Source: Acidobacteriota bacterium | GTDB taxonomy: Bacteria > Acidobacteriota > UBA6911 > RPQK01 > CBDAPI01 | Assembly (NCBI GenBank): GCA_965205345.1 | Contig: CBDBGQ010000053.1 | Span: 129,842-193,841 of the forward strand | Length of the DNA: 64,000 nucleotides | Reading direction: 5' to 3' | In this document: positions 21,203-57,703 of the stretch, one piece after another | How the letters are laid out: the number at the start of each line of letters is the position of its first letter | How positions within the stretch are numbered: position 1 is the first letter of the stretch | The notes under the pieces: model-generated | What the model was told of the DNA's origin: nothing | Database searches by the model: none | Seen by the model: only the letters and a program-made list of their open reading frames with translations | Position numbers and translations under genes: made by a program

Positions 21203-22657
21203 TTAGGCCAAAATCCTCTCGACGACGTTGCCGTGCACGTCTGTAAGCCGGAAGTCGCGGCCCTGGAACTTGAAGGTGAGGCTGGTGTGGTCGATTCCCA
21301 GGCTGTGGAGGATGGTGGCATTCAAGTCGTGCACATGGACCGGGTCCCTGGTGATGTTGTAGCAGAAGTCGTCGGTTTCTCCATAGATGGTGCCGGGCTT
21401 GATTCCGCCACCTGCCATCCACATGGTGAAGCACCGGGGATGGTGGTCGCGACCATAGTTGTCGCCCGTCAAACGGCCCTGACAGTAGACAGTCCTTCCG
21501 AATTCTCCGCCCCAGATCACGAGGGTGTCCTCCAGAAGTCCGCGTTGCTTCAGATCCTTGATCAGGGCCGCCGTGGCCTGGTCGGTGTCGCGGCACTGCG
21601 CGGTGATTTGCTGGGGCAGGAAAAAGTGCTGGTCCCATCCCCGGTGAAACAGTTGAATAAAGCGCACTCCCCGTTCAACCAGGCGCCGAGCCAGCAGGCA
21701 ATTTGCAGCATAAGTTCCAGGTGTTCTCGAGTCGGAACCATACAGGTCGAAAATATGAGCGGGCTCCTCGGAGATGTCGGTCAGCTCAGGAACGGAAGCT
21801 TGCATGCGGTACGCCAGTTCGTATTGAGCGATACGAGTGGCGATCTCGGGATCCCCGAAGTCGTCCAGCTTCAGCTGATTGAGTTCAGCCAGATCGTCGA
21901 GCATGCGGCGTCGCGTTTTGGGGCTGACTCCCGGTGGGTTCGACAGGTGGAGAACCGGGTCTCCAACCGATCGGAACTTTACACCCTGATACCTGGTGGG
22001 CAGGAAACCACTGCCCCATAATCGGTCGTAAAGAGGTTGCCCGACTCTTCCACTACCCTGCGACACCATGACAACGAAAGCAGGGAGATCCTGGTTTTCT
22101 TGTCCCAGTCCGTAGGACAGCCACGACCCAATGCTGGGCCGGCCGGCCAACGGGTCGCCTGTCTGGAAGAAGGTAATGGCCGGGTCGTGGTTGATCGCTT
22201 CCGTATACATGGACTTGATGAAACACAGGTCATCCACCACTTGCGCGGTGTGTGGCATCAGTTCGCTCACCCAGGCGCCAGACTCTCCAAACTGTGCAAA
22301 TTTGAAGTTGGAGGGGGCGATGGGAAAGCGTTCCTGGGTGGACGTCATGGTGGTCAGCCGCTGTCCCATCCTCACGGAAGCTGGCAGGTCCACGCCGAAG
22401 AGTTCCCCGAGCTTCGGTTTATAGTCGAAAAGATCCATCTGGGAGGGAGCGCCGGACTGGAACAGAAAAATGACACGCCTGGCTCGGGGGGCGAAATGGG
22501 GAAGCTCGGGAAGCCCGCCTGTTCTGGCAAAGGCCTGCAGATCATCGCTCAGCAGAGAGGCGAGCGCTGCTCCGCCGATGCCGACACCCGTCCGTATAAA
22601 AAAGTGGCGACGGTTCATCATCACTTGCCGTTCCATGAGGGGATTCATCAGACTCAC
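21203..22657 (-). CDS. DUF1501 domain-containing protein (sulfatase-like fold, Tat signal)
   Basis: N-terminal [21 protein letters not shown] Tat signal plus conserved DUF1501 blocks. Overlaps the upstream PSD1 gene by 4 bp. Confidence 0.8.
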
Positions 22658-25600
22658 TCCTTGGTAACAGTCTCGTCCAGGTTCAGAATCAGATTGGCCA
22701 CCGCCGTGTAGGCTGCCAGTTCGCTGGCTTCAAGTTCTCCGTCAGGAGGGGATTCCCCGAGACTGATCAGGTTGGATGCCGAGACTGGATCCTTGCGATA
22801 TTCAGCCAAATGGCGATCCAGTCCGGCGCGCAGTATGGCCAATTCGCGTGGACCCGGCGTTCGGGCCGTGGCCAGGCGGAATCCCAGACGGATTCGCTCC
22901 GCGGCATCATCAGGGCCTTCGCTCATCATTCGCTGCGCGAGGACCCGGGCAGCCTCTACGAAAGTGACATCGTTCATGAGAGTCAAGGCCTGCAGCGGCG
23001 TGTTGGTTCGCGTCTCAGGGACCACACACGTCTCGCGAGCGGAAGCATCAAAAGTGGCCATCACTGGCGGTGGAATGGTTCGTTTCCAGAACGTGTACAG
23101 GCTGCGCCGATACAGATCCTGACCCGAGTCCTGCGTATAACCTTCCAGGTCGGACAGCTCTTTCCATAATCCGGCCGGCTGGTAGGGCCGAACCGAAGGG
23201 CCCCCAAGCTTCTCGACCAAAAGCCCGCTCACGGCGAGTGCCTGGTCTCGGATGACCCCGGCCGAGAGTCGAAGGCGAGGTCCACGAGCCAACAAACGAT
23301 TCTCCGGATCCGTCTTGAGCAGCTCCGGGGTGAGTCTGGAGGACTGCCGATAGGCGGCACTCATCACGATTGCCCTTTGCAGGGCCTTGATATCCCAGCC
23401 AGTGCGGACGAACTCGGCGGCCAGCCAGTCCAGGAGCCGGGGATGGGTTGGCGGTTCACCTCTCGAACCGAAGTTCTCCGTTGACCTGACCAGACCTGCA
23501 CCAAAGTACATCTGCCAGAAGCGATTCACGGTTACCCGCGCTGTCAGTGGATTGGATGCATCTACCAGCCACCGGGCCAGGCCCAGTCGATCGTTTTTCT
23601 GTCCGGATGGCAGGGGAGGAAGAATCGCCGGAACATTGGCATCGACTTTTGCCCCCGGATTGTCGTACTGTCCCCGCTCCAGGATGAAGGTATCCCTTGG
23701 CGTCGCTCTCTCCGCCATGACCATAGTAGTGGGGATGCTTTCTACGAACTGGTCCCGTTCGTGCTGCCAGCAGATAAGATCCTGCCAGGTCTGTTGGAGC
23801 GAAGCAGGGGCATGGCGTTCCAGAAAACATCGGCGCAGCTTGGTCAGCTGCCGCGGGCTTCGGCCTGCTCGTGGGATGGCTGCAATTTCATCAATGGAGT
23901 TGGGCGTGGCCAGGACCGCTGCCTCTTCGGCCGTGAGGGCAACGCCGTAGACTTCGACCTCATCGATATACCCGTGGAAACGACTCTGGGCGCCCCCACG
24001 CGCGCCAATCCGCAAGGGCTCATCAGCGTTGAAGGGCTGGTTCAGGGCATCCAGCAGCACTTCCAGCTTCTCCGCTTGACCGTCGACGTAGATGGTCACA
24101 CCGGAAGCTACTCGAGAGCCATCGCAGGTTACCAGAACGTGATGCCACCGCCCCGCAGTCAGGCTCCTTACCGTTTCCACCCGGATGGCATCATCCAGCC
24201 GTCTGGCCGAGAGACTCAGCTGGATCTTTCCTTCTTGAATCGCAAGACTGTAACCGAGCGATTCATCGGTATCATCCATTCTTGACAGGATGGTGCCGTC
24301 CGAGACGTCGCTGAAATAGACCCATGCTCCCAGTGAAAACTTGTCCATAAAACCGAAGTCGCCGGTGTCGCCGGCATCGATGAAGCGTCGGCCGTCGAAG
24401 CTGGCAGCCTTTCCGAATCGGCCCCGGACGAAGACAGCTTCGCCCTCCTGAACCTGTGCGTTCGGGGAGTCGGTGCTTTCTTCTCTGAACACACCCTGGA
24501 TGTCCCCGTCCAGTGGATAACGTACTACCAGGCCGCGGGTAATCGTCCAGTCGACGGGGGGGGCCTTTTGGAGAGACTTCTCCCACTTCGCCTGGGCAGC
24601 CGCTATGTTCGGGCGCAGGTCTGCGAAGCGCTTTGTGGCAGCGGCTACCTTCTGCTCCAGTTGTCGCAGCCGAATCTGTTGCTCGGGAGTCGGAGCTTTG
24701 ATCATAGGGGGAGAGTTGCCGTGTTTGTTGGCTTTCCCCTTCTCGGGTACGTTGTTGAAGAAAGCGAAAAACTGATAGAACTCCTTCTGTGTGACCGGGT
24801 CATATTTGTGGTCGTGACAGCGAGCGCAACCCATCGTGAGGCCAAGCCACACCGTGGAGGTAGTGTTCACCCGATCGATCACGTATTCAACGGCATACTC
24901 CTCCGGGATCACTCCGCCTTCCCCGTTGGCCCTGTGGTTTCGATTGAAGCCGGTGGCAATCTTCTGATCGAGGGTGGCGTTGGGCAGCATGTCACCCGCG
25001 ATCTGCTCGACCGTGAACTGGTCGAAGGGCATGTTCTCGTTCAAGGCGGCGATTACCCAGTCACGCCATCTCCACATGTACCGCTCGCCGTCGCTCTGAT
25101 AACCGTTGCTGTCCGCGTAGCGAGCTGCTTCTAGCCAGGGCCAGGCCATGCGCTCCCCGTAGCGGGGTGACGCCAGCAGCCGTTCGACCTGCTTCTCGTA
25201 GGCATCAGGCGACTGATCATTCAGGAAGGCATCGACTTCTGAAGGCGTGGGTGGGAGACCCGTCAGGTCGAGGGTGACACGCCGAATCAGGGTTGCCCTG
25301 TCCGCCTCCGGTGATGGTTTCAACCCTTCTCGCTGCAGGCGCGCGAGAATGAAATAATCGATCCCGTTGCGGGGCCAATCCGTGGCTCTGACTGGCGGCA
25401 GCTGCGGCTGCTGCAGGGGAGAAAAGGCCCAATGCTGACGCCATTTCGCCCCTTGTTCGATCCAGCTACGGATGAGATCGATCTGGTCCCGAGTCAGCTC
25501 CTTGCCGGACCAGGAAGGAGGCATACGCTGAGCCTCGGTGTCGGCGCTGATGCGCCGCAGGAGTCGGCTTTCGCCTGGATTCTCAGGTGCGACCACCCGA

Positions 25601-25836
25601 TAGCCGCCGCGGTCGGCAAAGATTCCTTCCCGAGTATCCAGCCTCAAGTTTACCTGGCGCTGTCGCTCATCGGGGCCATGGCAAGTGAAACAGTTATCCG
25701 ACAGGATCGGCCGAATGTCGCGGTTGAACTCAACACGCGGCAAGTCTGTGTCCTGGCCCGGCAGTGGATTTACTGCTGAGAGCAGCGACCAGACCAGACA
25801 GAACAGGAAACGGTCCAGTCGTGCTTTTCTCTCCAT
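22654..25836 (-). CDS. PSD1/DUF1553 plus DUF1549 plus planctomycete cytochrome C domain protein with an inserted LamG/ConA-like domain
   Basis: Contains the [11 protein letters not shown] heme-like motif (PSCyt1) with DUF1549 and DUF1553 blocks. It is the classic partner of DUF1501. The internal start at [21 protein letters not shown] is preferred over 25989. Confidence 0.8.
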
Positions 25837-26182
25837 TCCGGTCATTATACTGTCTGTCTCATCACCATGAACCCTTATTCCCGCTAGTGGGAAGTGGGTG
25901 CTGCTTCCATTCCCGGGTGGACCCCGATCGGGAGCCCAGCCCACCATCCCCGCTGCTTCACCATGTGGAACCACTATCTTTTCAGTCAAGGGCTGCCGCC
26001 CCAGGTCAAGGTTCTCCGTTTTGTGCCAGTAGGAGTCAACTTTTCGACAGGACGAACAGAACGGTAGAGCGTCAGCTTACCGTTGGGGAAACGGCGCTTA
26101 CACCTTGCCGTTCTGTGGTCGTGGCGCCAAAAAACTTTCAGCACCAGAGTCCAACGCTCGTCGGTCTGAGGAGAAGCCTCGT

Positions 26183-27520
26183 CTAGCTCCAGGGAAAGGG
26201 ACTGTTGGAGACGGGATGAAGTTTGCCCGCGGCATAACGGGCGAAACGGAAGGGCTCTAAAAGCTCGCTTCGCGTGCCCAGAATCTCGGAAGCGACCAGC
26301 TTGCCCAGGCCCAGCATCTTGTAGCCGTGATTGGAATCGGCAATCAGATAGCAGTTCTCTCGAAACACGTCGAAGACGGGGAAGCTGTCGGGAGTAAAGG
26401 CCCCCAGCCCTCCACTGGGCTCATCTTTGTAGAAAAGGTGGGTTCCCTCGAAGCGCTTCTGGCAGAAAGCCAGAGCTGAACACCACATCCGAGCGAAATC
26501 TTGCCCGACCACAAAGTCGGGCGACTCGGGGCCATAGGGATCGACTCTGACTTGGTCCGGGTCGGTCTCAACCCGATAAGGCATGGCCCCGCCTTGAATG
26601 CCCTCAAAATGAAAGTCGGGTTTGTAGTAGATTCCCCAGCCCTCGTCTCGAATCAACGTGCCCTCGAAGTCGTAGAGCGGTTGATCACAATCGAAGTGGA
26701 TGACCGGGGGCATCCGGCCGTCGTTCGTCTTCTGAAGCGCGGGGTCGACTCCCAGTGTCCCTTCCTGTAGACACCAGTAGGTCCACATCTTCACCCCGGA
26801 ATGCATCCTTCCGTTGGCTTTTATGCTGATCGTCCCGGGTAGCTCCAGCATTTCCCAGACGGATTTTACCCAGGGCCCGACTCCCACGATCACATAATCG
26901 GTGTGGATCGTTCCCCGGCTGGTCTCGACCGCCGAAATCGACTCTCCCGAGAACTGAAAACCCGTGACCTCTACGCCCGAGAGAATCTGGACGCCTTCCT
27001 TCTCCGCCTTGCGCGCCAGACCCTGCATGGAGGCCATGTTATTCGCGTATCCACCGTTTTTTTCGTGCAGGATCGAAGTCGTCCCTTTCGCCTGCCAGTC
27101 GTGGAGAATGCTCCTCATGTAGTCCCGGCAGTCAGCCTCGCCCTCGATGAACTCCGAGGGGTAACCGATCATCTGCTGCTGCTCGTAAATGGTGGCCACG
27201 TCGGCATGCATCGCTTCGGGACTGATCTGCAAATACCCGACGGAATGGTAACTGTAGGCCTCCGGGTCGCTTTCCCAGACCTCCACACTGTGGGCCATCA
27301 GTTCCCGCATGGCCGGCTGGAAGTAGTTGTTGCGAATCACGCCGCAGGCGATGCCCGAAGCACCGGCACCGATTCCGCTCTTATCAACGACCAGGATTTC
27401 AGAGCCCGTGCCTTTTCGACGTGCCTTCAAGTCGAGGGCCAGGTGGTAGGCCGTGCTCAAACCATGCACCCCGGCGCCAATCACTAAATACCTGGCAGAA
27501 GGGGGAAGATTCATAAGCAA
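26183..27520 (-). CDS. FAD-dependent oxidoreductase (DAO family; sarcosine/D-amino-acid oxidase-like)
   Basis: N-terminal YLVIGAGVHGLSTAYHLA dinucleotide-binding motif and a DAO-family C-terminal region. Confidence 0.75.
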   Translation of the reverse strand: MLMNLPPSARYLVIGAGVHGLSTAYHLALDLKARRKGTGSEILVVDKSGIGAGASGIACGVIRNNYFQPAMRELMAHSVEVWESDPEAYSYHSVGYLQISPEAMHADVATIYEQQQMIGYPSEFIEGEADCRDYMRSILHDWQAKGTTSILHEKNGGYANNMASMQGLARKAEKEGVQILSGVEVTGFQFSGESISAVETSRGTIHTDYVIVGVGPWVKSVWEMLELPGTISIKANGRMHSGVKMWTYWCLQEGTLGVDPALQKTNDGRMPPVIHFDCDQPLYDFEGTLIRDEGWGIYYKPDFHFEGIQGGAMPYRVETDPDQVRVDPYGPESPDFVVGQDFARMWCSALAFCQKRFEGTHLFYKDEPSGGLGAFTPDSFPVFDVFRENCYLIADSNHGYKMLGLGKLVASEILGTRSELLEPFRFARYAAGKLHPVSNSPFPWS

Positions 27521-27594
27521 TGACTGTAGGGGCCGGTCTTGTGCTGCCGGAGAGGGTCGCCCCTACGTATTTCCTTACAAGCGGAACCCGTCAT

Positions 27595-28002
27595 TCAGAA
27601 CTTCTTGTAAACCTTCTTGAGTTGCACGAGGGGGTGTCTGCTCGACATCTGGAATTTGATCAGCAGTTCGCGGGCGATCATGTCCCGCTCCTGTTGTGTT
27701 TCCGGCAATTCAATGTCCTCAGGGACAATGACCCAGCCGTTGATATTTCGGTCGAAGACTGCCGGCACACCCTCTTCATAACCCATATGCACGTCTTCCA
27801 GCCAGTTGAGATCCTCCCACTCCATCCTCTGAATGTAGTCCTTCAGGAGGGGTGTGAGCAGCGAGTAATCGGGCAAAAGATTGACGTCATAGCGATAACC
27901 GATATGTTGTCCGATTTCTTTTTCACGCTGGCTGTCGATCCCATCAGATTCCAGGTAGTAATCGACATCCTTCTGCTGGTCAGAGCCGGTTCTAGAGCCC
28001 AT
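27595..28002 (-). CDS. Hypothetical acidic protein (135 aa), translationally coupled to the FMN-binding GltB-like gene
   Basis: The ORF overlaps the upstream gene by 11 bp. I recognise no family; it is rich in D/E/W/Y. Confidence 0.4.
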   Translation of the reverse strand: MGSRTGSDQQKDVDYYLESDGIDSQREKEIGQHIGYRYDVNLLPDYSLLTPLLKDYIQRMEWEDLNWLEDVHMGYEEGVPAVFDRNINGWVIVPEDIELPETQQERDMIARELLIKFQMSSRHPLVQLKKVYKKF

Positions 28003-29377
28003 TCTTGCCCCCTTGCCCCACGATGTAGTCTGTCCCAGCCAGAGGTAGGCGAGCCATGGCCGAGGCTTCGGTGGTCAGGGCTGCCAGATCCTCCGGTTCC
28101 AGCGAATGGATGTTTGTCTTGCCACAGGCCCGAGCCAGCATCTGGCATTCCATGGTGAGCGTGTGCAGAAAATTGTACACGCGGAGGGCGGCTTCATCTG
28201 GATTCAGACGCTTGCGCAGCTCCGGGTCCTGGGTGGTCACTCCTACCGGGCAGAGCCCGGTGTGGCAGTGATAGCAATAGCCGGCAGGAACTCCGACCGT
28301 GCCTTCGTAGTCTGCCTCCGGAATGTCCTTGTTGCAATTGAGGGCCACCAGGGCGGCAGTTCCAATAGCTATCGCATCGGCACCCAGAGCCAGAGCCTTC
28401 GCCACATCGCCTCCATTGCGAATGCCTCCAGCATAGACCAGTGAGATATCGCCGGTCTTTCCCACGTCGTCGAGAGCCCGGCGAGCTTCCCGGACAGCTG
28501 CAATTCCGGGAATACCTGTTTCCTCGGTAGCCAGATGAGGACCAGCTCCCGTGGAGCCCTCCATCCCGTCCAGAAAAATACTGTCCGGTCCCGTTTTAGC
28601 GGCCATGCGAATGTCGTCGTACACTCGGGCGGCCCCCAGCTTCAGCTGAATCGGAACCTCCCCGTTGGTCGCTTGGCGAATCTCCTCTACTTTCAGCGAC
28701 AGGTCATCCGGCCCCAGCCAGTCGGGGTGCCGGGCGGCCGAGCGTTGATCGATGCCGGCGGGAAGGGACCGCATCTCCGCCACCTGATCGGTGACCTTCT
28801 GGCCCATAAGGTGCCCACCCAGTCCCACCTTGCAACCCTGGCCGATGAAAAACTCGACGCCGTCGGCGATTTGAAGATGGTGTGGGTTGAACCCATAGCG
28901 GGATTGAATCAACTGGTAAAGCCATTTGTCAGAGTAACGGCGTTCGTCCGGTAGCATCCCTCCCTCACCGGAGCAGGTTGCCGTTCCGGCCATGGTGGCT
29001 CCTCGCGCCAACGCCACTTTCGCCTCATAGGAAAGAGCTCCGAAGCTCATTCCCGAAATGTAAATCGGAATATCCAGAACCATGGGTCGTTTGGCCCTGG
29101 GGCCGAGAACCGTCTTCGTTTCGCACTTCTCCCGATATCCCTCGATGACAAAACGCGTCAGTGTGCCCGGCAGAAAGGTGAGGTCATCCCAGGTGGGGAT
29201 CTTCTTGAAGATGGCCATGCCCCGCATGCGGTAGCGGCCCAGCTCTGCCTTGATGTGGATATCATCGATGACCCGGGGGGTAAAGAGAAAGTTCTGACCG
29301 AGCACATGTTGATTGCGTCTCTGTCCGGTCGATTCCGGGCCCTCACGGGCGGACTTCTTTTCTTCCTGGGCTGCCAT
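27992..29377 (-). CDS. FMN-binding glutamate synthase family protein (GltB domain-2-like; MgsC-like large subunit)
   Basis: Conserved GltB FMN/Fe-S region blocks (GEGG, CHTGLCPVGVTTQD). Confidence 0.8.
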   Translation of the reverse strand: MAAQEEKKSAREGPESTGQRRNQHVLGQNFLFTPRVIDDIHIKAELGRYRMRGMAIFKKIPTWDDLTFLPGTLTRFVIEGYREKCETKTVLGPRAKRPMVLDIPIYISGMSFGALSYEAKVALARGATMAGTATCSGEGGMLPDERRYSDKWLYQLIQSRYGFNPHHLQIADGVEFFIGQGCKVGLGGHLMGQKVTDQVAEMRSLPAGIDQRSAARHPDWLGPDDLSLKVEEIRQATNGEVPIQLKLGAARVYDDIRMAAKTGPDSIFLDGMEGSTGAGPHLATEETGIPGIAAVREARRALDDVGKTGDISLVYAGGIRNGGDVAKALALGADAIAIGTAALVALNCNKDIPEADYEGTVGVPAGYCYHCHTGLCPVGVTTQDPELRKRLNPDEAALRVYNFLHTLTMECQMLARACGKTNIHSLEPEDLAALTTEASAMARLPLAGTDYIVGQGGKNGL

Positions 29378-29469
29378 GAACCTTCCTTTCCTCGACTCCC
29401 TATCCTGACCAGCCCATCACGAAGTCCTGGGCGGGCCTCGAGATCGCTGGGTGGAAGCTCTCCGAATGG

Positions 29470-30315
29470 TTATAGAACAATCTTCTTCTCCGCCGGCTCC
29501 AGGTTGTCGTAGTTCCAGAGCTGTTTGCCGGCAACGATCTTGTGGAGATTGGCTACTCCGTTTGGCGCTTCGAGTCCATAAAGGGCCAGTTTTCGTTCCA
29601 GCCAGGTCGCTTCGAGTTCCGTCATCTCAGCAGGTACTGCATCCGTCCCCAGCGACACGATTTTCCCGCCCACGTAAATGGTTCCGTCGTACATGGAGTC
29701 CCCCAGATCAGCCCCGACGTCGCCCAGAATGATGATGCGCCCGCGCTGCATCATGAAGCCGCTAAGAATCCCGCTGCGCCCGCCGACAATGATGGTTCCA
29801 CCCTTCATGCTGATGCCTGTTCGGGAGCCGGCATCTCTCCGGCAAACCAGGTCGCCGCCCCGTATTGCCGCCCCGAATAGAGACCCGGAGTTTTTCTCAA
29901 CGACTACCGTCCCGGAAAGCATGTTTTCGCCGCAGGACCACCCTACCCGGCCCTTAATGGTTACATTGGGTCCGTCGATCAAGCCTGCCGCGAAGTAGCC
30001 CAGGGAGCCTTCGAATTCCAGTTTGAGGCGATTCAGGATGGCAACGCCCAGAGAGTGTTTAGCATTGGGATTCTGAACAGCGATGTAGCCATAGCCCTGC
30101 TCCATCAGCTCGCGAATTCTAAGTCCAATCTCTCTCGAAGTCATTTGAGCAGCATCGAACCTGGCCTGCTTCTCGAAGTCCACTTCGTAGGCGCTGGGGT
30201 CAACTAGGTTCTCTTCTTCCTGGGCCGAGAAGAAGACACGGTGAGTTCTCCCCGCAAGCTTCTCTTCGTGAAGCCCCAGATCGTCGGATTCATCCGTTTT
30301 GTTCAACTGTGCCAA
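29470..30315 (-). CDS. Glutamate synthase GXGXG (alpha-subunit C-terminal domain) family protein (MgsB-like)
   Basis: Repeated beta-helix GXGXG units (GGTIIVGGRSGILSGFMMQRGRIIILGDVGADLGDSMYDGTIYVGG). Confidence 0.8.
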   Translation of the reverse strand: MAQLNKTDESDDLGLHEEKLAGRTHRVFFSAQEEENLVDPSAYEVDFEKQARFDAAQMTSREIGLRIRELMEQGYGYIAVQNPNAKHSLGVAILNRLKLEFEGSLGYFAAGLIDGPNVTIKGRVGWSCGENMLSGTVVVEKNSGSLFGAAIRGGDLVCRRDAGSRTGISMKGGTIIVGGRSGILSGFMMQRGRIIILGDVGADLGDSMYDGTIYVGGKIVSLGTDAVPAEMTELEATWLERKLALYGLEAPNGVANLHKIVAGKQLWNYDNLEPAEKKIVL

Positions 30316-31238
30316 ACTCTCACCTCTCCGGCGTATGGATCACAAGTATCAATCTCATGGGGGAAAATACTGCGAATGGCCACCTCTTCAGAGGCCATGG
30401 CAATGCAATCTTCTCCCTCGTAAAGTACCATCGGCTTCGCCGCCATGACATCCTTGGCCATGCCCAGACTGTCGGCAGTGGCGACCAGGTAGGTAAAGAC
30501 GCCGTCCAGTTCCTTCACAGAATCGTGTAGAACCTCTTGCAGCTCGTCTCCAGCCTCCAAGCGGTGGGCTATGTAAACGGCGATGAGTTCCGAGTCGCAG
30601 TCGGAGACAAAACGACGGCCCAGCCGCTCGAGCTGCCGGCGCTTACTCCAATAATTGGTCAGTTGTCCATTGTGAACAACCGAGATGTCGCTGAAGGGGT
30701 AGGCCCAAAAGGGGTGTGCTGAGCAGATGTCCACGTCCGATTCCGTAGCCATGCGGACGTGTCCGATGGCATGCGTTCCAGTGAAGCTGTCAAGGGAGTA
30801 GCGGGTGGCCACGCTGCCGGCATCCCCGAGGTCCTTGATCAATTCCAGGGACCGGCCCAGAGACAGGATTTCAGCCCCCTCCACATCCTCTATGAAGGCA
30901 CAGAGGCGGCCCAGGTCGCCCTCATATCTGATGCGATAGCCGAAAGCGTATTCGGTCGGCTGATGGGCCTGGACGATCTCCCCGCCCATGGAGGCGATGC
31001 GCTCGTCAACTTCAGCCTGGCGCTGAGCGATTCTCTGGCGGATCTCAGAGCCTTCGCTCAAATCCTCCTGCTCGGCCAGTTTGAAGCGGACCACCAGCTC
31101 CTCCGGTTCGGGAGCCCCATACACGGCAAACCCCGCCGAATCAGGTCCTCTGTGCTTCATGGACTGGAGCATGAGGGTCAGTTCGTTCCCGATTTCCCCA
31201 GCCGTGTTCTTGTGAATAATTCCGGCGAGGCCACACAT
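30303..31238 (-). CDS. Class II (Ntn) glutamine amidotransferase-domain protein (GltB domain-1-like; MgsA-like)
   Basis: MCGLAGII N-terminal catalytic Cys right after Met. Overlaps the GXGXG gene by 13 bp. Confidence 0.8.
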   Translation of the reverse strand: MCGLAGIIHKNTAGEIGNELTLMLQSMKHRGPDSAGFAVYGAPEPEELVVRFKLAEQEDLSEGSEIRQRIAQRQAEVDERIASMGGEIVQAHQPTEYAFGYRIRYEGDLGRLCAFIEDVEGAEILSLGRSLELIKDLGDAGSVATRYSLDSFTGTHAIGHVRMATESDVDICSAHPFWAYPFSDISVVHNGQLTNYWSKRRQLERLGRRFVSDCDSELIAVYIAHRLEAGDELQEVLHDSVKELDGVFTYLVATADSLGMAKDVMAAKPMVLYEGEDCIAMASEEVAIRSIFPHEIDTCDPYAGEVRVWHS

Positions 31239-31251
31239 AATCCCCTCAATT

Positions 31252-32718
31252 CTACGGCAGACAATCCCAGTAGCGGTCGAAATCCCACTCCGTCACCGTT
31301 GAGAGAAACCGTTCCCACTCGTCACGCTTGTAGTGCATGTAGACAGAATACATGTCGCCGGGAAGGGCGGACTTGATCACTTCGTCCTCCGCCAGCTTTC
31401 CCAGCGCTTCGCCCAGTGACAGGGGAAGTTTGCTGACCTGCTTTCCCGCTTCAATCGCCTCGTAAATGTTACGCTGCTCAGGTTCACCCGGATCAAGCTT
31501 GCGCCGTAAACCGTCGTCGAAGGCTTTCAGAAGTCCCGCCGCCAGCAGGTAAGGGTTCACCATGGAGTCCACAGCCCGGTACTCCAGCCGCCCGGGTCCC
31601 GAAACCCGCAGTCCGCAGGTGCGGTTCTGAAAACCCCAGTCCGCAAAGACAGGAGCCCAGAAGCCGGTGTCCCAGAGCCTTCGATAGGAGTTCACCGTCG
31701 AACAACCGATGGCTGTCAAGGCCGGCAGGTGTTCCAAAATGCCTCCGATACAGTGTAAACTACCCTCTGCAGGCATTCTCTCCCCGGGGGCTGGCTCGAA
31801 CGCGTTTTCGCCGCCCCTGCGATGAAGGAACGATCCTTCCATCCCCGGGAGCTCTTGGTTACCCAGGGAACATAGGACATCCTCGCCTCCGCGCCATAAG
31901 GAGAGATTGTGGTGACATCCGTTGGCGGAGACGCCCATGAAAGGCTTGCACATGAAGCAGGCAATGAGATCATGCTCACGGCCTACCTGTGCGCAGATCT
32001 GTCGGTAGGTGGTCAGACGATCGCAGGTGCGCAGGGCGTCGTCGAAGGTGAAGTTCAGTTCCAGTTGACCCGGGGCATCTTCGTGATCACCCTGGATCAT
32101 GTCCAGACCCATGGCCCGGGCATACTCGATTACCTTCATCACGACTGGTCTCAAGGACTCAAACTGGTCGATGTGGTAGCAATACGGTTTGCTGAAACCG
32201 CCCACGGGCTTGCCGTCCGGGCCCTTCTTCAACCACATCATTTCGGGCTCGGCACCGTGGCGCAGGTGGAGACCGTCATGATCGCTGTGGAACTCCCCGT
32301 GGATTCGTCTCAGGTTGCCTCGGCAATCTGAAGTCAGAAAGGCGCCGGGGTCGACCTCTTCCTCCCGATTCCGAAACAGCGTGCAAAAGACGCGGCCAAT
32401 CCGATGGTCCCAGGGAAGCTGGACAAAAGTCTCGGGATCCGGAATCCCGACCAGTTCCCAGGCCTCAGGGCCGTAGCCGATATAATTGTCCAGCCGATCC
32501 ATGAATAGATTGGCCGTTGCTCCATAGACGAGTTGGAACCCTCGCCGGGCAATGGTTTCCCAATGATCCGCCGGAACACCTTTGCCTACGATTCGACCCG
32601 TAACGGACACGAACTGGTAGTAGAGATAGTCGATACCCAGTTGGTCGATCTGCCGGCGAACTTCTTTCACGAGTTCGGCGCGGCCATCCGCTTCTACATA
32701 GGCTTCCAAATCTGACAC
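31252..32718 (-). CDS. Glutamine synthetase family protein (type III / gamma-glutamyl-amine synthetase-like, GmaS/PuuA-like)
   Basis: GS catalytic domain blocks (KPFMGVSANGCHHNLSLW). First gene of the minus-strand operon. Confidence 0.7.
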   Translation of the reverse strand: MSDLEAYVEADGRAELVKEVRRQIDQLGIDYLYYQFVSVTGRIVGKGVPADHWETIARRGFQLVYGATANLFMDRLDNYIGYGPEAWELVGIPDPETFVQLPWDHRIGRVFCTLFRNREEEVDPGAFLTSDCRGNLRRIHGEFHSDHDGLHLRHGAEPEMMWLKKGPDGKPVGGFSKPYCYHIDQFESLRPVVMKVIEYARAMGLDMIQGDHEDAPGQLELNFTFDDALRTCDRLTTYRQICAQVGREHDLIACFMCKPFMGVSANGCHHNLSLWRGGEDVLCSLGNQELPGMEGSFLHRRGGENAFEPAPGERMPAEGSLHCIGGILEHLPALTAIGCSTVNSYRRLWDTGFWAPVFADWGFQNRTCGLRVSGPGRLEYRAVDSMVNPYLLAAGLLKAFDDGLRRKLDPGEPEQRNIYEAIEAGKQVSKLPLSLGEALGKLAEDEVIKSALPGDMYSVYMHYKRDEWERFLSTVTEWDFDRYWDCLP

Positions 32719-32935
32719 GATTCCCTTTTTTTCTTGGTGCAGCGAGAGGGCTGCTCAGTCCCGGGTCAAGATCTCTGGTCCGTTCCACTGTCCACAGGAA
32801 GTCTGGTTTCGGGAACACAAATCGATCAGGCTGATCTGCTTCTGAGTACGCCAACTCAGAACAGCCAGTATCCGAGCTGAGACGAGATTCTATCCCTCGG
32901 AAAAAGGGGGGTCAAGATTGGCAGCGGGAGGTTGT

Positions 32936-33216
32936 TTAGCCGATTGGCCGTCGTTTCCGTAGGGCACGCCAATCTGGCGCTCCGAACGTGACTGGCTGGC
33001 AACACTGACCGGGGAATAGATACGACATACCCGATCCGTTCAGTTCGGCCACGGTTGATAACCGTGCCCTACGCCTGCTTAGCCAGTTGGTCGCTTTTGT
33101 AGGGCACGCCAATCTGGCGTGCCGAACGTGGCAGGCCTGCAGCACTGACCGGGAAATAAGATACACATGCCCGATCCGTTCAGTTCGGAACGGTTGATAA
33201 CCGTTCCCTACATGCG
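32936..33216. repeat. Two tandem copies of a ~140-bp highly structured element (candidate cis-regulatory or non-coding RNA, or REP-like element)
   Basis: Unit 1 spans 32936-33072 and unit 2 spans 33078-33216. They share gtagggcacgccaatctggcg..ccgaacgtg..cactgaccgg..ccgatccgttcagttcgg..cggttgataaccgt.ccctac. Each unit is bounded by a 10-bp inverted repeat (gtagggcacg/cgtgccctac) and has internal hairpins (cgcca-atc-tggcg; cacggtt-gat-aaccgtg). Confidence 0.6.
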
Positions 33217-33438
33217 ATGTGTGGGTCGAGTGAGATTTGAGCAGCCCGCCTTCGGGTTCAAGTCAGTTGATTCAACCTTTCAACTCCGACGCTTCTTGGG
33301 TACCATTCTGGCAATGAGGCCGGCTGGGCGGTTGAGCGGGTTCGACGAGCAGACATCGGCTAAGGTGTTCCGGTTCTCTCCAGCCCATCGGCAAACGTTA
33401 CCGGTTTTATGGAAGGAAGTACTAGGAAATCGATTGAC

Positions 33439-44263: not shown

Positions 44264-45243
44264 TTACGGTGTATCCTGTAGCTTCTTCATGTTTTCGACG
44301 AGTGTGTGCCAGCCGAAAACGAGCGACAACCGGAAGCCGTCCATGCGCAGGTCGGTGGGCTCGCTGTCGTTCACCGTCGCGATGTAGCCTCCTGTGAGCT
44401 GCAGGTTGTCGTTGATGTGGTAGCCGAGCGTAATCCCAAGCCCGACCTTGTCCAGCTTTTCGCCCTGCATACCGTGCAGAGTGGCCTGGCCGCCGGTCAT
44501 CCAGGTCACGTCGAACGAGCCCCAAAGGTGCTCGTGAAAATCGCGCGTGAGATGACTCTCGAGCTGAAACATGGGCTTGGTAGAGAGCGTGGTGCCCACG
44601 AAGTCATTGTTGTCGCTGAAGAACCAGACTGCGGGAAGAAACTCCAGGGTGGTGCGCCGGCCTGGGACCCAGGGTCCGAGCTGCCACACGATTGGGAACC
44701 CGACGCGGCCGTACACCGGTTCTGGCCAAGGTTTAGCGGCTGGCCATTGTCATACTCGCCGATAGGAACGGCCAGGTCGAGGATCACATCCAGGGAGAAA
44801 CCCGGTTCGTAGCGCGCCAGATCGGGGATATTCTTGATCGCTTTGGGGCCGATCAGGTTGAGATCGAACTCGAATAAAGGGTCCCCGAAGCCACTCGCGT
44901 CCTGGCTGAACGTTCGGCCGTTAAGCGTCACCTCACCTGAGAGCCGGCCCATGGGAGCGAGCACAGCCACCATAGCGGCCTGATCGAAGAGCGTAAAGGT
45001 ATGGGCATAACCGACTATGGCCACGTTGGCTTCGAAGCTCGCATCCGCCAGCACGGTGGAGCCCGGGTCGAGAGGGTTTGCGTTTCCGTTCAAGAACATG
45101 CCAATGACGGGCACTCCGTTGCCGCCGCTCAGACTCTTCCAGTAAAAGCGCGGCGGCACCTGGCCGGAGGCGGGCGTCAGGCCCACGGCCACGAAGGAGA
45201 TCGCCAGCGCCAGAATCAATGGCAGATTTCGCAGGTGAATCAT
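44264..45243 (-). pseudogene. Outer-membrane transport beta-barrel (MetA-pathway-of-phenol-degradation-like family), frameshifted
   Basis: The N-terminal two-thirds (signal peptide MIHLRNLPLILALAISFVAVG...) sits in one frame up to about 44760. The C-terminal third (YGRVGFPIVWQLGPW...LVFGWH) continues in another frame (ORF 44264-44716). Confidence 0.5.
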
Positions 45244-46875
45244 CTCTTTGGCTCCTTCACCATCTCAGGGGGAGGGATGAACTGTCGCTTGTTGAGGAGG
45301 GGCGGATATCCCGGTTCCTCCGGGAACCGCTGCGGCATGTTGTCGTCCAGGGTCTCGAACATGGAACGGCTGGGCAGAATCACGTTATTCCTAGTGACGT
45401 AGTCTTCCCAGCGCTCCACCAGCGCGACTACTTTTTCGGGCTGCCTGGAGGCCAGGTCCTGACGCTCCCCGGGGTCGGAGGTCAAGTCGAAGAGCTCCCA
45501 GTCGCCAGTGCCGTAGGGCTTCCACTGCCAGCGAAGCTTCCAGTTCCCCTGGCGCACTGCTCGGTTCCCGAACAGCTCCCAGGCCAGATAGTCCTCGTCA
45601 GTGCGGACGGAATGGATCCCCCCGGCGAGCATCGGGATCCAGGACTTGCCCAACAGAGGTGGCAGCTGCCGTCCTTCTCGCGTCTCGGGATACTCGACTC
45701 CTGCGACCTCCAGCAGTGTGGGCATGATGTCGGCTACATGCATGATGGAGTGATGGATGCTCCCACTGGAACGTCCAACTGCCGGGCCGCTCACGATCAG
45801 GGCGTTCCGAATCCCACCCTCGGCGAGCCAAGCTTTGTACTGGCTGAAAGGCGTCATCGATACCTGAGCCCACATGGGACCGTAGCCGACGTATGAACCC
45901 GGTTCACCCCAGGCATTCGGATGTGTCTTGGCCCACTTGATGGCCGCGAAGAGAGAGTTCAGCGTGCCTGGCGTGCCCGCGATCATCTTGAAGAGGTCCG
46001 TGCCCTCGGCGCCGTTGTCACCGAAAACGATGAAAATGGTGTTTTCGTACTCGCCGATCTCCTTCAGGTAGTCGACGAGGCGCCCGACGTGGTAGTCCAT
46101 GTTCTCTACCATTCCCGCGTAAAGCTCCATCTTCATCCCGAGTTGCGCTCGAGGTGCCGGCGCGAGAAGCGTGGAGTCAGAAACGAACCACAGGCGGTCG
46201 GCGAGCTTTGTGCCCTTGGTAAAGAGACCGAGCTCAACCTGCCGCTGCAGCCGCTGGCGGCGCACCGCATCCCAGCCCTTGTCATACTCCCTGACGTGGC
46301 GTCGGCGCCACTCCTTCGGCAAGTGGTAGGGGTCGTGCGGCGCCTGGTGCGCGAGGTAAGCGAAGAAAGGCTTGCCGTCGGCCCGGTCCGCCTCAATGAA
46401 CTCGATCATCTTGTCTGTGTAGGTCTTGGTCGCGTAATAGCCTTTGGGGAGCTCGCTGAGATAGAGACCGTCCTCGGTAAAGACCGATTGAGGCGAGCGG
46501 GCGGTCAGGTTCGTCATGTCCCAGTAGCTTCCGCCACCGTCGAGGAGGCTGAAGTCACGCTCGAAGCCCCGGGCCCGCGGAATCTTATCGGGCGCTTTGC
46601 CCATGTGCCACTTGCCGGTCATGTAGGTGTGGTAGCCGGCTTCCTTGAGAAGCTGCGGCAAGGTTGCGATGCTGTCATTCAGGTAGCCTTCGTAGCCCGG
46701 AACCCCCATCTGGTTCGGGGCCGTCCACTCGTCCATGTTGCCGAGGCCGTTGAGGTGCGTATCGACACCCGAGAGCAGCATCGAACGGGTGGGTGAACAG
46801 CTTGCGTGAGTGTAAAACTGGGTAAAGCGCACGCCCTGCTGAGCCAGGGAATCGATGTGTGGAGTCTGTATTTCG
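45240..46875 (-). pseudogene. Arylsulfatase (sulfatase family), main body, separated from its N-terminus by an IS256 insertion
   Basis: Has the C-x-P-x-R sulfatase signature SCSPTRSMLLSG and the GKWHMG block. The frame reads back to ...PEIQTPHIDSLAQQGVRF immediately after the IS, with no start codon or signal peptide on this side. Confidence 0.8.
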
Positions 46876-56250: not shown

Positions 56251-57703
56251 CTAGCAGCCCGTGGTGAAAGTCGAGGATAAGGGGTCACACAGCGACACTA
56301 GACTGACCCCATGGCAATGGGGAAAAAGAAACGTCGACAGCAAGAAGACCTGTGGGTCGCCACCAGTGAGCTGCCCCGCACCGCCGGCCATCCCTTCTAC
56401 GAAAGACTGAATGGCCTTTTCAACGAACACGGCTTTGACGACTTCGTGGAGGGACTGTGTGCGAAGTTCTATGCAGACAAGATGGGGCGACCGAGCCTGG
56501 CTCCGGGAGTGTACTTTCGGCTGCTGCTGGTGGGGTATTTCGAAGGGATCGGATCGGAACGAGGAATAGCCTGGAGAGCAGCTGATTCTCTGGCACTGCG
56601 AGAGTTTCTGGGATTGAAACTGAGCGAGTCGCCGTCTGATCACTCCACGATCTCCCGAACCCGACGACTGATCGATGTGGCTACCCACGAAGCAGTCTTT
56701 GACTGGGTACTGAAGCGGATCGGGGCGAGCGGCCTGCTGCGGGGCAAGACGATCGGCATCGATGCCACTACGCTGGAAGCGAATGCAGCGCTGCGCAGCA
56801 TCGTGCGCCGGGACAGCGAGCAGGGGTATGAAGAGTTTTTGATGGAGCTGGCGAAAGCCTCCGGGATTGAGACGCCGCGACGGGAAGATCTGGCCAAACT
56901 GGACCGCAAGCGCACGGGCAAAGGATCGAACCGGGTTTGGAAGCACCCGCATGATGCGGATGCGCGGATTACCAGAATGAAGGACGGGCGGACGCACCTG
57001 GCGCACAAGGCGGAGCATGCAGTGGATCTGGAGACCGGAGCGATTGTCTCGGTGACGGTACAGGGAGCCGATCAAGGGGACACGCAGACCATGGTGAAGA
57101 CCCTGACGGAAGCGGCCGAGAAGGTGGAACAAGCGCTGCCGGAGGGACGAGGCATCGAAGAGGTGGTGGCCGACAAGGGGTATCACAGCACGCAGCGGAT
57201 GGTGGACCTGGATGCGGTGGGACTGCGCAGCTATGTGAGCGAACCGAGGCGAGGGAAGCGACGCTGGCGAGGAGACCGGCAGGGGCAGGAAGCGGTGTAT
57301 GCGAATCGGCGGCGCATCCGGGGAGAGCGAGGGCAGCGGCTGCTGCGGCAACGAGGAGAGCAGCTGGAGCGACCCTGTGCGCATCTGTACGGGAGCGGAG
57401 GGATGAGACGGCTGCATGTACGGGGACATGAGAATGTGTTGAAGCGACTGCTGATCCAGGTGAGCGCCTTCAATCTGGGGATGCTGATGCGTCAGAGCCT
57501 GGGTGTGGGAACGCCGCGGGGTCTGCAGGGGCGGATTTGCGCCCTGATGCTACTGATTTTGTCGCTGTTCAAGCGTCTTAAGGGCCTGTTCGGACTGATT
57601 CCGGCTGCTTGGCCCGAAAAACCCAACTCAGCGACCCCTTCGCTGCTTCCACCCGTGGGTACCACCTGAGCTCAGAAAACGTACTTCCACCACGGGCTGC
57701 TAG
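56251..57703 (+). mobile_element. IS5/IS1182-family insertion sequence flanked by CTAG on both sides
   Basis: TIRs are ctag-cagcccgtggtgaaagt (56251-56271) and acttccaccacgggctg-ctag (57683-57703). Confidence 0.7.
56311..57669 (+). CDS. IS5/IS1182-family DDE transposase
   Basis: Has an InsH-like N-terminal domain (FYADKMGRPSLAPGVYFRLLLVGYFEGIGSERGIAWRAADSLALREFLG). The C-terminal DDE region includes VADKGYHS. Confidence 0.75.
   Translation: MAMGKKKRRQQEDLWVATSELPRTAGHPFYERLNGLFNEHGFDDFVEGLCAKFYADKMGRPSLAPGVYFRLLLVGYFEGIGSERGIAWRAADSLALREFLGLKLSESPSDHSTISRTRRLIDVATHEAVFDWVLKRIGASGLLRGKTIGIDATTLEANAALRSIVRRDSEQGYEEFLMELAKASGIETPRREDLAKLDRKRTGKGSNRVWKHPHDADARITRMKDGRTHLAHKAEHAVDLETGAIVSVTVQGADQGDTQTMVKTLTEAAEKVEQALPEGRGIEEVVADKGYHSTQRMVDLDAVGLRSYVSEPRRGKRRWRGDRQGQEAVYANRRRIRGERGQRLLRQRGEQLERPCAHLYGSGGMRRLHVRGHENVLKRLLIQVSAFNLGMLMRQSLGVGTPRGLQGRICALMLLILSLFKRLKGLFGLIPAAWPEKPNSATPSLLPPVGTT

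Follow-up and report, generated by a model that had tools for sequence, protein, structure and literature searches.

A widespread gene module paralogous to the N-methylglutamate pathway, with a probable role in glutamate-mediated oxidation of methylated amines, in an Acidobacteriota genome

A stretch of 64,000 nucleotides from an Acidobacteriota bacterium (assembly GCA_965205345.1, contig CBDBGQ010000053.1, positions 129,842 to 193,841; hereafter the window) carries six co-directional, tightly packed genes on its minus strand. These encode a glutamine synthetase (GS)-like ligase (GS489), an N-terminal nucleophile (Ntn) amidotransferase subunit (GAT), a GXGXG beta-helix subunit (GXG), a flavin mononucleotide-binding subunit with a GltB-type synthase domain (FMN), a small acidic protein (SML), and a flavin adenine dinucleotide (FAD)-dependent oxidase (DAO445). 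We consider it quite probable that these genes constitute a single operon, which serves a second glutamate-mediated pathway of methylated-amine oxidation, paralogous to the classical N-methylglutamate (NMG) pathway (i.e., GmaS, MgsABC, and MgdABCD); its mechanism is likely to be of the NMG type, in which a ligase is followed by an amidotransferase/synthase and then by an oxidase. No description of this module, including its possible intermediates gamma-glutamyl-dimethylamide and N,N-dimethylglutamate, was found in the literature searched; it is apparently an undescribed, very widespread sister version of the NMG pathway.

GS489 retains every metal, ATP, and glutamate ligand of GS, together with R339, R344, and R359, while the flap Glu327 is replaced by Trp and Asp50' by Tyr. 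The first-pass annotation, made from the sequence alone, had likened this GS-like protein to GmaS and had proposed inspecting the ammonium-binding residues that distinguish GmaS; both substitutions agree with that assignment. The GmaS catalytic signature used here comprises Asp177, Glu186, Arg312, a Trp in place of the flap Glu, the absence of Asp50', and the pocket residues Tyr147, Gln175, Glu179, Asn188, and Lys30'; the signature is that of the paper presenting the GmaS crystal structure (PMC7948447), in which Asp177, Glu186, the pocket residues named, and the flap Trp are catalytic or amine-pocket residues. GS489 carries this signature in full, and Y147, Q175, D177, E179, E186, N188, and K30' are invariant in all 68 GS489 members compared. 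From its residues, GS489 appears to be catalytically competent as a GmaS-type ligase acting on a putative small-amine substrate. It reached the cut-off of neither the GmaS model TIGR03105 (“type III glutamate--ammonia ligase”; 292.8 bits, cut-off 469.6) nor the GlnA model TIGR00653 (234.3 bits, cut-off 429); the GS489 orthologue in a marine alphaproteobacterial locus (L004) scored 317.2 bits against TIGR03105, as compared to 592–674 bits for classical GmaS proteins in the same loci. Identity to classical GmaS was 29–31%. In a neighbor-joining analysis, the 68 members formed a separate, tight monophyletic clade, characterized by two clade-specific insertions, and GS489 was placed at a distance of 0.81 from Escherichia coli GlnA.

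The closest relatives of GS489 in cultured strains (55% identity, both insertions shared) are encoded on Ruegeria and Paracoccus plasmids. In these plasmids (Ruegeria sp. SCSIO 43209, L093:9449-18489; Paracoccus sp. TOH, L094:9903-16690), the GS489 relative lies beside a second GS-like gene, and neighboring genes encode a cytochrome P450 and a 2Fe-2S ferredoxin, or an aldehyde dehydrogenase, plus type-1 glutamine amidotransferase (GATase) hydrolases. By gene content these clusters look like Ipu/Puu-type clusters for gamma-glutamyl-alkylamide catabolism, and mark out a broader clade of “long” GS-like proteins; we take them to resemble the ipu cluster of Pseudomonas, with IpuC-like ligases.

GAT, GXG, and FMN are three separate subunits whose Pfam domains and gene order (GATase, GXGXG, FMN) are those of MgsABC, in line with the earlier statement that the trio has the size and order of NMG synthase. 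The N-terminal nucleophile motif MCG (Cys1) of GAT was kept in all orthologues checked. As compared to classical copies, for which the Rhizobium brockwellii plasmid NZ_CP053441.1 served as the reference, identity was 33% for GAT and MgsA, 36–43% over the C-terminal ~170–220 residues for GXG and MgsB, and 51–53% for FMN and MgsC, the latter two sharing core motifs that include C-x2-C-x4-C-P; at these identities to the Rhizobium subunits and to those of a second locus (L029), the trio is not orthologous to mgsABC of the characterized type. FMN is the best-conserved protein of the module (median identity 82% across phyla). Against the GltB model NF008730 (cut-off 1047), FMN scored 125.9 and GXG 18.9, and a domain search of the module proteins in the window found no central domain and no GltD-type or ferredoxin domain. 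Neither did GS489 cluster with GlnA nor the trio with archaeal-type anabolic glutamate synthase, an outcome that had been named at the outset as speaking against an alkylglutamate pathway. Judged by sequence, the module is a tight paralogous system, distinct from GmaS/MgsABC and not orthologous to it.

SML had been flagged as a possible novel subunit outside the described pathway, a view that would have been weakened by a lack of conservation beyond this genome. None of the 80 homologous loci interrupts its reading frame, and divergences at the three codon positions are 0.16, 0.12, and 0.54, indicating strong purifying selection; at least 8000 database homologues share 72–100% identity, none of them annotated. 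A HMMER scan of 1.8 billion cluster representatives yielded ~292 matches, nearly all 60–78% identical and belonging to a single tight family; the same exhaustive scan revealed no distant relatives and no informative fusions. SML matched no Pfam or NCBIfam family, no PDB sequence, and no known fold; its AlphaFold model (pLDDT 71.5) consists of a small alpha/beta core, with residues 29–41 invariant but poorly modeled. The co-occurrence with mgsC-like genes that the first-pass annotation had proposed checking turned out to be invariable, as SML directly follows FMN in all module loci; the median identity to the window protein was 73% among the loci fetched. SML tracks FMN most tightly, since a reduced variant of the module (described below) retains just these two genes. 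SML is thus proposed as a subunit on account of its invariant adjacency and extreme conservation, and probably pairs obligately with the FMN subunit. A plus-strand open reading frame (ORF) of 212 amino acids (27520-28158, ATG start), antisense to SML and the end of FMN, was rejected as spurious; it is open in 59 of the 80 loci, and the codon pattern favors the minus-strand gene.

In a scan with one genome per species, SML was found in at least 590 genomes, and its carriers span at least six phyla, including Alpha-, Gamma-, and Betaproteobacteria, Latescibacterota, Acidobacteriota, and Gemmatimonadota; no plasmid record carrying SML was found. One cultured strain that has the module is Virgifigura deserti SYSU D60014 (L057). 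Eighty loci were fetched, 61 with enough upstream sequence and 43 fully flanked. The order GS489, GAT, GXG, FMN, SML was kept in 51 of these 61, at GC contents from 35 to 65%, and median identities to the window proteins were 72% for GS489, 65% for GAT, and 67% for GXG. The nearest named homologues of SML and DAO445 come from Pirellulales. Other frequent partners among the fully flanked loci were a divergently transcribed GntR regulator (32/43), a protein designated c6 (27/43), and the ammonium channel protein Amt (16/43). Absent from the window, c6 (~190 amino acids) carries the motifs FLGWQCRxRQ, RHxxxxTxDPxER, and QATYWHNxLFNP and adjoins SML, in either orientation, in 48 loci examined (e.g., L086:10433-11092 on the plus strand and L009:10477-11076 on the minus strand, plus 46 more loci). 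It matched no Pfam or NCBIfam family. An assignment of c6 as DmmA was rejected, as there was no BLAST or phmmer similarity and no NCBIfam match, though NCBI annotates a DmmA family. The reduced variant, present in Latescibacterota and Gemmatimonadota (L073:8542-20108; also L048, L060, and L070), consists of FMN and SML with no GS489, GAT, or GXG upstream, and continues with a flavoprotein of acyl-CoA dehydrogenase fold (464 amino acids; weak matches to two-component monooxygenases, e.g., DszC and HsaA), Tdm, Amt, FTHFS, and classical GmaS.

Methylated-amine or one-carbon (C1) genes were located within 10 kb of the module in 32 of the 43 fully flanked loci. They include tmm (781 vs. a cut-off of 675), tdm (1178 vs. 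1100), and classical gmaS (592–674 vs. 470), as well as classical mgsABC with its XRE-cupin regulator, SoxBDAG-like genes, folD, FTHFS, parts of a trimethylamine N-oxide (TMAO)-type ABC transporter, and amt. In 8 of the 43 loci, the module has beside it a classical gmaS/mgsABC set, complete or partial, that comes with an XRE regulator of its own; the module is therefore not these organisms' classical NMG pathway. In operons such as L012, L014, and L042, a single synthase trio is accompanied by both GS489 and classical GmaS as ligases and by both DAO445 and a SoxBDAG-like enzyme as N-methyl oxidases. The amine substrate, which the first-pass annotation had left open, is narrowed by this company, since the module elsewhere sits in islands for the catabolism of trimethylamine (TMA), TMAO, dimethylamine (DMA), and monomethylamine (MMA). 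In a metagenome-assembled genome resembling Thiomicrospira (L042:1307-14295), the whole module, from DAO445 to SML, interrupts a SoxBDAG-like operon between soxB and soxDAG, downstream of FTHFS and classical GmaS and with no classical mgsABC in view. Locus L004 contains a third GS-like gene (L004:774-2087; 437 amino acids, PuuA-like, below all cut-offs) that adjoins a gene (L004:1-697) for an OYE/Pyr_redox protein with the domain make-up of trimethylamine/dimethylamine dehydrogenase; a gene for an amidohydrolase of the cytosine deaminase family is found downstream of FTHFS in the same locus.

DAO445, the last gene of the operon, is an accessory gene outside the invariant core; it is present in 24 of the 43 fully flanked loci (median identity 67%). 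Its Pfam DAO match is limited to residues 11–225 (i.e., the FAD domain), it scored 72.9 against the soxB model TIGR01373 (cut-off 529), and its identity to SoxB is 27% over the N-terminal half only. The top Foldseek matches were SoxB, DMGO, MSOX, and MTOX, all N-methyl-amino-acid oxidases, at a model confidence (pLDDT 61) that supports assignment at the superfamily level only. The proposal that an FAD oxidase stands in for the four-subunit dehydrogenase thus agrees with its nearest structural relatives, but its membership in the core did not hold. MgdABCD comprises a tetrahydrofolate (THF)-binding, GcvT-type alpha subunit and a beta subunit with a soxB-level score; the window has the single DAO445, which lacks a THF-binding domain, and no SoxA, SoxD, or SoxG was found in its 64 kb. 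The DAO445 family has at least 8000 members at 71–76% identity, some of them automatically named “methylglutamate dehydrogenase subunit A”; pipelines that label DAO445 as a classical NMG-pathway gene may distort metagenomic inventories. The gene itself is real, but its start is more likely the ATG at 27514 (443 amino acids) than the previously assigned 27520, because its closest homologue (P0271; 93% identity) also has 443 amino acids at 100% coverage; an exact-sequence look-up of the TTG-start protein gave no match, which is compatible with a wrong start codon. A FAD oxidoreductase of 446 amino acids on the Paracoccus sp. TOH plasmid was rejected as a DAO445 member (21% identity).

The six ORFs are listed in the table below; the coordinates first assigned, and both overlaps between adjacent genes (13 bp for GAT/GXG and 11 bp for FMN/SML), were reproduced, and the domain search returned the domains first named, with the small ORF matchless. 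An identical 13-bp GAT/GXG overlap, and a GXG that also has 281 amino acids, are found in locus L004. The same six-gene module is present in three sister assemblies (L001–L003), with differing insertion sequences around it. Its occurrence in these other assemblies, the at least 8000 homologues each of SML and DAO445, and the purifying selection on SML indicate that the six ORFs are real genes rather than chance frames. A promoter-like site and a terminator-like hairpin enclose the six genes and may be compatible with a single transcription unit; counts of such matches in the region were not above chance (for the promoter, relative to shuffled expectation). No Rfam match was obtained for the operon or for the 720-bp leader that precedes it.

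Table. Features of the operon in the window (positions counted from the first nucleotide of the window)
Feature	Predicted identity	Position	Strand	Details
GS489	GmaS-like gamma-glutamyl-alkylamide synthetase (“long”)	31252..32718	-	488 aa; GTG start; Gln-synt_C match
GAT	MgsA-like class-II (Ntn) amidotransferase subunit	30303..31238	-	311 aa; GATase_6 and GATase_7 matches
GXG	MgsB-like GXGXG beta-helix subunit	29470..30315	-	281 aa; TTG start; PF01493 match; N-terminal extension of ~50 aa
FMN	MgsC-like FMN-binding subunit with GltB synthase domain	27992..29377	-	461 aa; Glu_synthase PF01645 at 294 bits
SML	Acidic 135-aa protein without known fold, signature component of the module	27595..28002	-	No family match
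DAO445	FAD-dependent oxidase of the sarcosine-oxidase/dimethylglycine-oxidase superfamily, last gene	ORF 26183..27520; probable gene 26183..27514	-	DAO match
Promoter-like site	Consensus match only, ~170 bp 5' of the GS489 start	32887..32915	-	TTGACC-17-TAGAAT; 10/12 positions
Terminator-like site	Hairpin and T-run, consensus match only, 25 bp 3' of the DAO445 stop	26140..26158	-	8-bp stem, then GAAAGTTTTT

In the proposed pathway, GS489 would use ATP to join a small methylated amine, its putative substrate, to the gamma-carboxyl group of glutamate. By homology to MgsABC, GAT would then hydrolyze the resulting gamma-glutamyl-alkylamide and pass the amine through a complex scaffolded by GXG to the FMN subunit, where it would be exchanged onto the 2-iminoglutarate/2-oxoglutarate skeleton and the product re-reduced, yielding N-alkylglutamate and NH3; SML would act as an additional obligate subunit of this FMN/synthase complex. 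DAO445, judging from its fold family, would finally oxidize the N-methyl group, regenerating glutamate and liberating formaldehyde, presumably in free form because no THF domain is present. The host would thereby gain nitrogen, and perhaps also energy, by consuming a methylated amine.

As to which methylated amine is handled, DMA has a slight edge over MMA alone, though at less than even odds: the module possibly handles DMA, which would be converted to gamma-glutamyl-dimethylamide and then to N,N-dimethylglutamate, from which DAO445 would remove the first methyl group to give N-methylglutamate and formaldehyde. Somewhat more tentative is the extension of this idea, in which the module plus DAO445 would be the glutamate-mediated route that replaces the DMA monooxygenase in tdm/tmm bacteria lacking dmmDABC, with SML as a subunit of the N-alkylglutamate synthase. 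A glutamate-mediated DMA route is a coherent hypothesis because of the absence of Dmm proteins from module loci, the distribution of plasmid-borne genes, the poor affinity of classical GmaS for DMA, and the likeness of the regulator. With DmmA, B, C, and D queries from an annotated Rhizobium plasmid cluster, phmmer gave zero matches to DmmA, DmmB, or DmmC in 89 module loci, of which 16 have Tdm and 10 have Tmm; this search was local, reaching at most 10 kb from the module and, in many loci, only a short way beyond Tdm on one side. In three of four classical controls (Rhizobium, Acinetobacter, and Paracoccus aminovorans), dmmDABC and tdm were no more than 6 kb apart, whereas in Ponticoccus no dmmDABC was located within 15 kb of tdm. 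Tdm (139 plasmids) and DmmC (148 plasmids) had the same host distribution and SML occurred on none of these plasmids, in a control skewed taxonomically to Rhizobium. The proteins of the window module themselves carry domains unrelated to DmmA, DmmB (PDR/VanB reductase), and DmmC (DUF3445). For classical GmaS, Michaelis constants of 16 mM for DMA and 27 µM for MMA have been reported (PMC7948447), while dmmDABC is reportedly missing from many methylated-amine degraders and, in marine metagenomes, is by far outnumbered by tmm, tdm, and gmaS, which has been described as a DMA “bottleneck” (PMC5520151). The module GntR shares 36% identity (107 bits) with the tmm-adjacent GntR of P. aminovorans, as compared to 31% (56 bits) with an unrelated FCD-type GntR, and a Ruegeria GntR at the tmm-adjacent position senses DMA (PMC13390433). 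In locus L078, the immediate neighbors of the module GntR include a true DmmD orthologue (L078:2682-4106, minus strand), which scores 642 bits against Rhizobium DmmD, and a gene for an aldehyde dehydrogenase; no DmmA, DmmB, or DmmC is in view.

Several observations weigh against DMA as the substrate, in addition to the local reach of the Dmm search and the taxonomic skew of the plasmid control, and a number of them favor a different explanation, in which the module would be an isofunctional second NMG pathway for MMA only. GS489 would then serve as an additional GmaS, the GAT, GXG, and FMN subunits (with SML) as an additional NMG synthase, and DAO445 as a monomeric NMG oxidase, the whole differing from the classical set solely in kinetics or regulation; we regard this explanation, too, as tentative. 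The amine pocket of GS489 consists, in all 68 members, of the same residues as that of the MMA-specific GmaS, with no sign of accommodation of a bulkier secondary amine, and the neighboring Amt, a channel of the NH4+/methylammonium type, fits MMA better than DMA. To our knowledge, there is no precedent for formation of a tertiary amide by a GS-type ligase or for reduction of an iminium ion by a GltB-type FMN domain, and neither reaction was reported in the literature searched. No tdm, tmm, sox, FTHFS, amt, or other methylated-amine or C1 genes were found elsewhere in the 64-kb window; its stand-alone six-gene cluster suffices as a complete route from MMA to glutamate, while DMA requires either that DAO445 remove both methyl groups or that an enzyme be encoded elsewhere. 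The automatic name given to some DAO445 members also points to methylglutamate, and the DAO445 model is of low confidence. Furthermore, the substrate and the intermediates of the pathway are ones that we infer from sequence. Restriction to MMA, however, implies full side-by-side redundancy with classical gmaS/mgsABC in several families as well as duplicate ligases and N-methyl oxidases in single operons (e.g., L012, L014, and L042), and it leaves Tdm-bearing islands without an enzyme that consumes DMA.

Gamma-glutamylation of another small amine outside C1 metabolism (e.g., ethylamine, ethanolamine, or isopropylamine), with DAO445 releasing the matching aldehyde, is unlikely. The 55%-identical relatives of GS489 in Ipu/Puu-like clusters with cytochrome P450, ferredoxin, type-1 GATase hydrolases, and aldehyde dehydrogenase are compatible with such a function, as is the lack of C1 genes near the module in the window, and classical GmaS accepts ethylamine (PMC7948447). 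Those relatives, however, are accompanied neither by a trio of the GltB type nor by SML. Aldehyde dehydrogenases are also not among the recurrent neighbors of the module, and 32 of the 43 fully flanked loci carry genes of methylated-amine or THF-C1 metabolism (Tdm, Tmm, GmaS, Mgs, SoxBDAG-like, FolD, and FTHFS). Very improbable is an anabolic function in ammonium assimilation, with the module acting as a glutamine synthetase joined to a split glutamate synthase of the archaeal type; the domain content superficially resembles such a set, and the Amt neighbor present in some loci would suit it. This reading was rejected, being contradicted by the residue data for GS489, which lacks the Asp50' and flap Glu327 that GlnA needs for ammonium; scores were far from the cut-offs for GlnA (234 vs. 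429) and, with FMN, for GltB (126 vs. 1047), there is no GltD or ferredoxin domain, and the neighbors of the module are catabolic.

The genes around the operon in the window are unrelated to it. Directly downstream are genes for a PSCyt1/PSCyt2/Laminin_G/PSD1 protein (1111 amino acids) and a DUF1501 protein (21203-25989, minus strand); together with a sulfatase (45240-46832, minus strand), this is a content typical of planctomycetes. A DUF772/DDE_Tnp_1 transposase (56311-57669, plus strand) is encoded elsewhere in the window. The stretches bordering the module in the window are 32719-33438 and 25990-26182. The insertion points of DDE transposases differ among the sister assemblies: in L002 the insertion precedes GS489, and in L001 and L003 it follows DAO445. 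In L001, the S58 peptidase gene upstream of the module is broken into fragments. In the window strain and its close relatives (L001–L003), the module has the character of a discrete island.

Methylated amines are a major nitrogen pool in the sea and in soil as well as aerosol precursors, and the DMA step is an acknowledged gap in their breakdown. The module may represent the missing route of DMA breakdown in bacteria without the known enzyme; if so, the reported DMA bottleneck in the cycling of methylated amines would be explained at the genetic level, at least in part. Even with MMA as the substrate, a fourth invariant subunit of an enzyme of the NMG synthase type would be new biochemistry. 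Two large, tight, unannotated protein families are tied to the module, SML and, elsewhere, c6, and SML would offer a clean marker gene for environmental surveys.

Among known systems, DmmDABC occupies the same island position as the module, next to tmm/tdm and upstream of NMG genes, and the two have a complementary distribution in the sequences examined. They share no homology, however, and the ATP- and glutamate-dependent chemistry proposed for the module differs from the haem-, FMN-, and NADPH-dependent monooxygenation of DmmDABC; functional equivalence of the two is a hypothesis. With GltB/GltD and the archaeal split glutamate synthase, the module shares the Ntn amidotransferase, the FMN synthase domain, and the GXGXG beta-helix, but it has no central domain, GltD, or ferredoxin module, and its ligase is not an ammonium-using GS. 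GS489 falls within the same “long” GS-like clade as the Ipu/Puu-type ligases and has both insertions in common with the plasmid relatives at 55% identity; the Ipu/Puu-like plasmid clusters, however, have a cytochrome P450 and a ferredoxin followed by a type-1 GATase hydrolase, and no GltB-type trio, SML, or DAO445.

The closest likeness is to the classical NMG pathway (GmaS, MgsABC, and MgdABCD), for which Methyloversatilis, Methylocella, Ruegeria, and SAR11 (“glnT-glxBCD”) are named as hosts. The two share the same enzyme logic and domain set, the catalytic and pocket residues of the ligase, the order GATase, GXGXG, FMN, and an N-methyl-amino-acid oxidase, and they also share genomic islands. 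In the module, however, the ligase gene comes first rather than last, GXG is longer by ~50 amino acids, and the regulator is a GntR rather than an XRE-cupin protein; the module has the extra invariant SML, which classical clusters lack, and the window has, in place of the heterotetrameric MgdABCD, one oxidase of the DAO type that lacks a THF domain. By identity, the module is a deep paralogue of the classical pathway, whereas its members share 65–82% identity among themselves across phyla.

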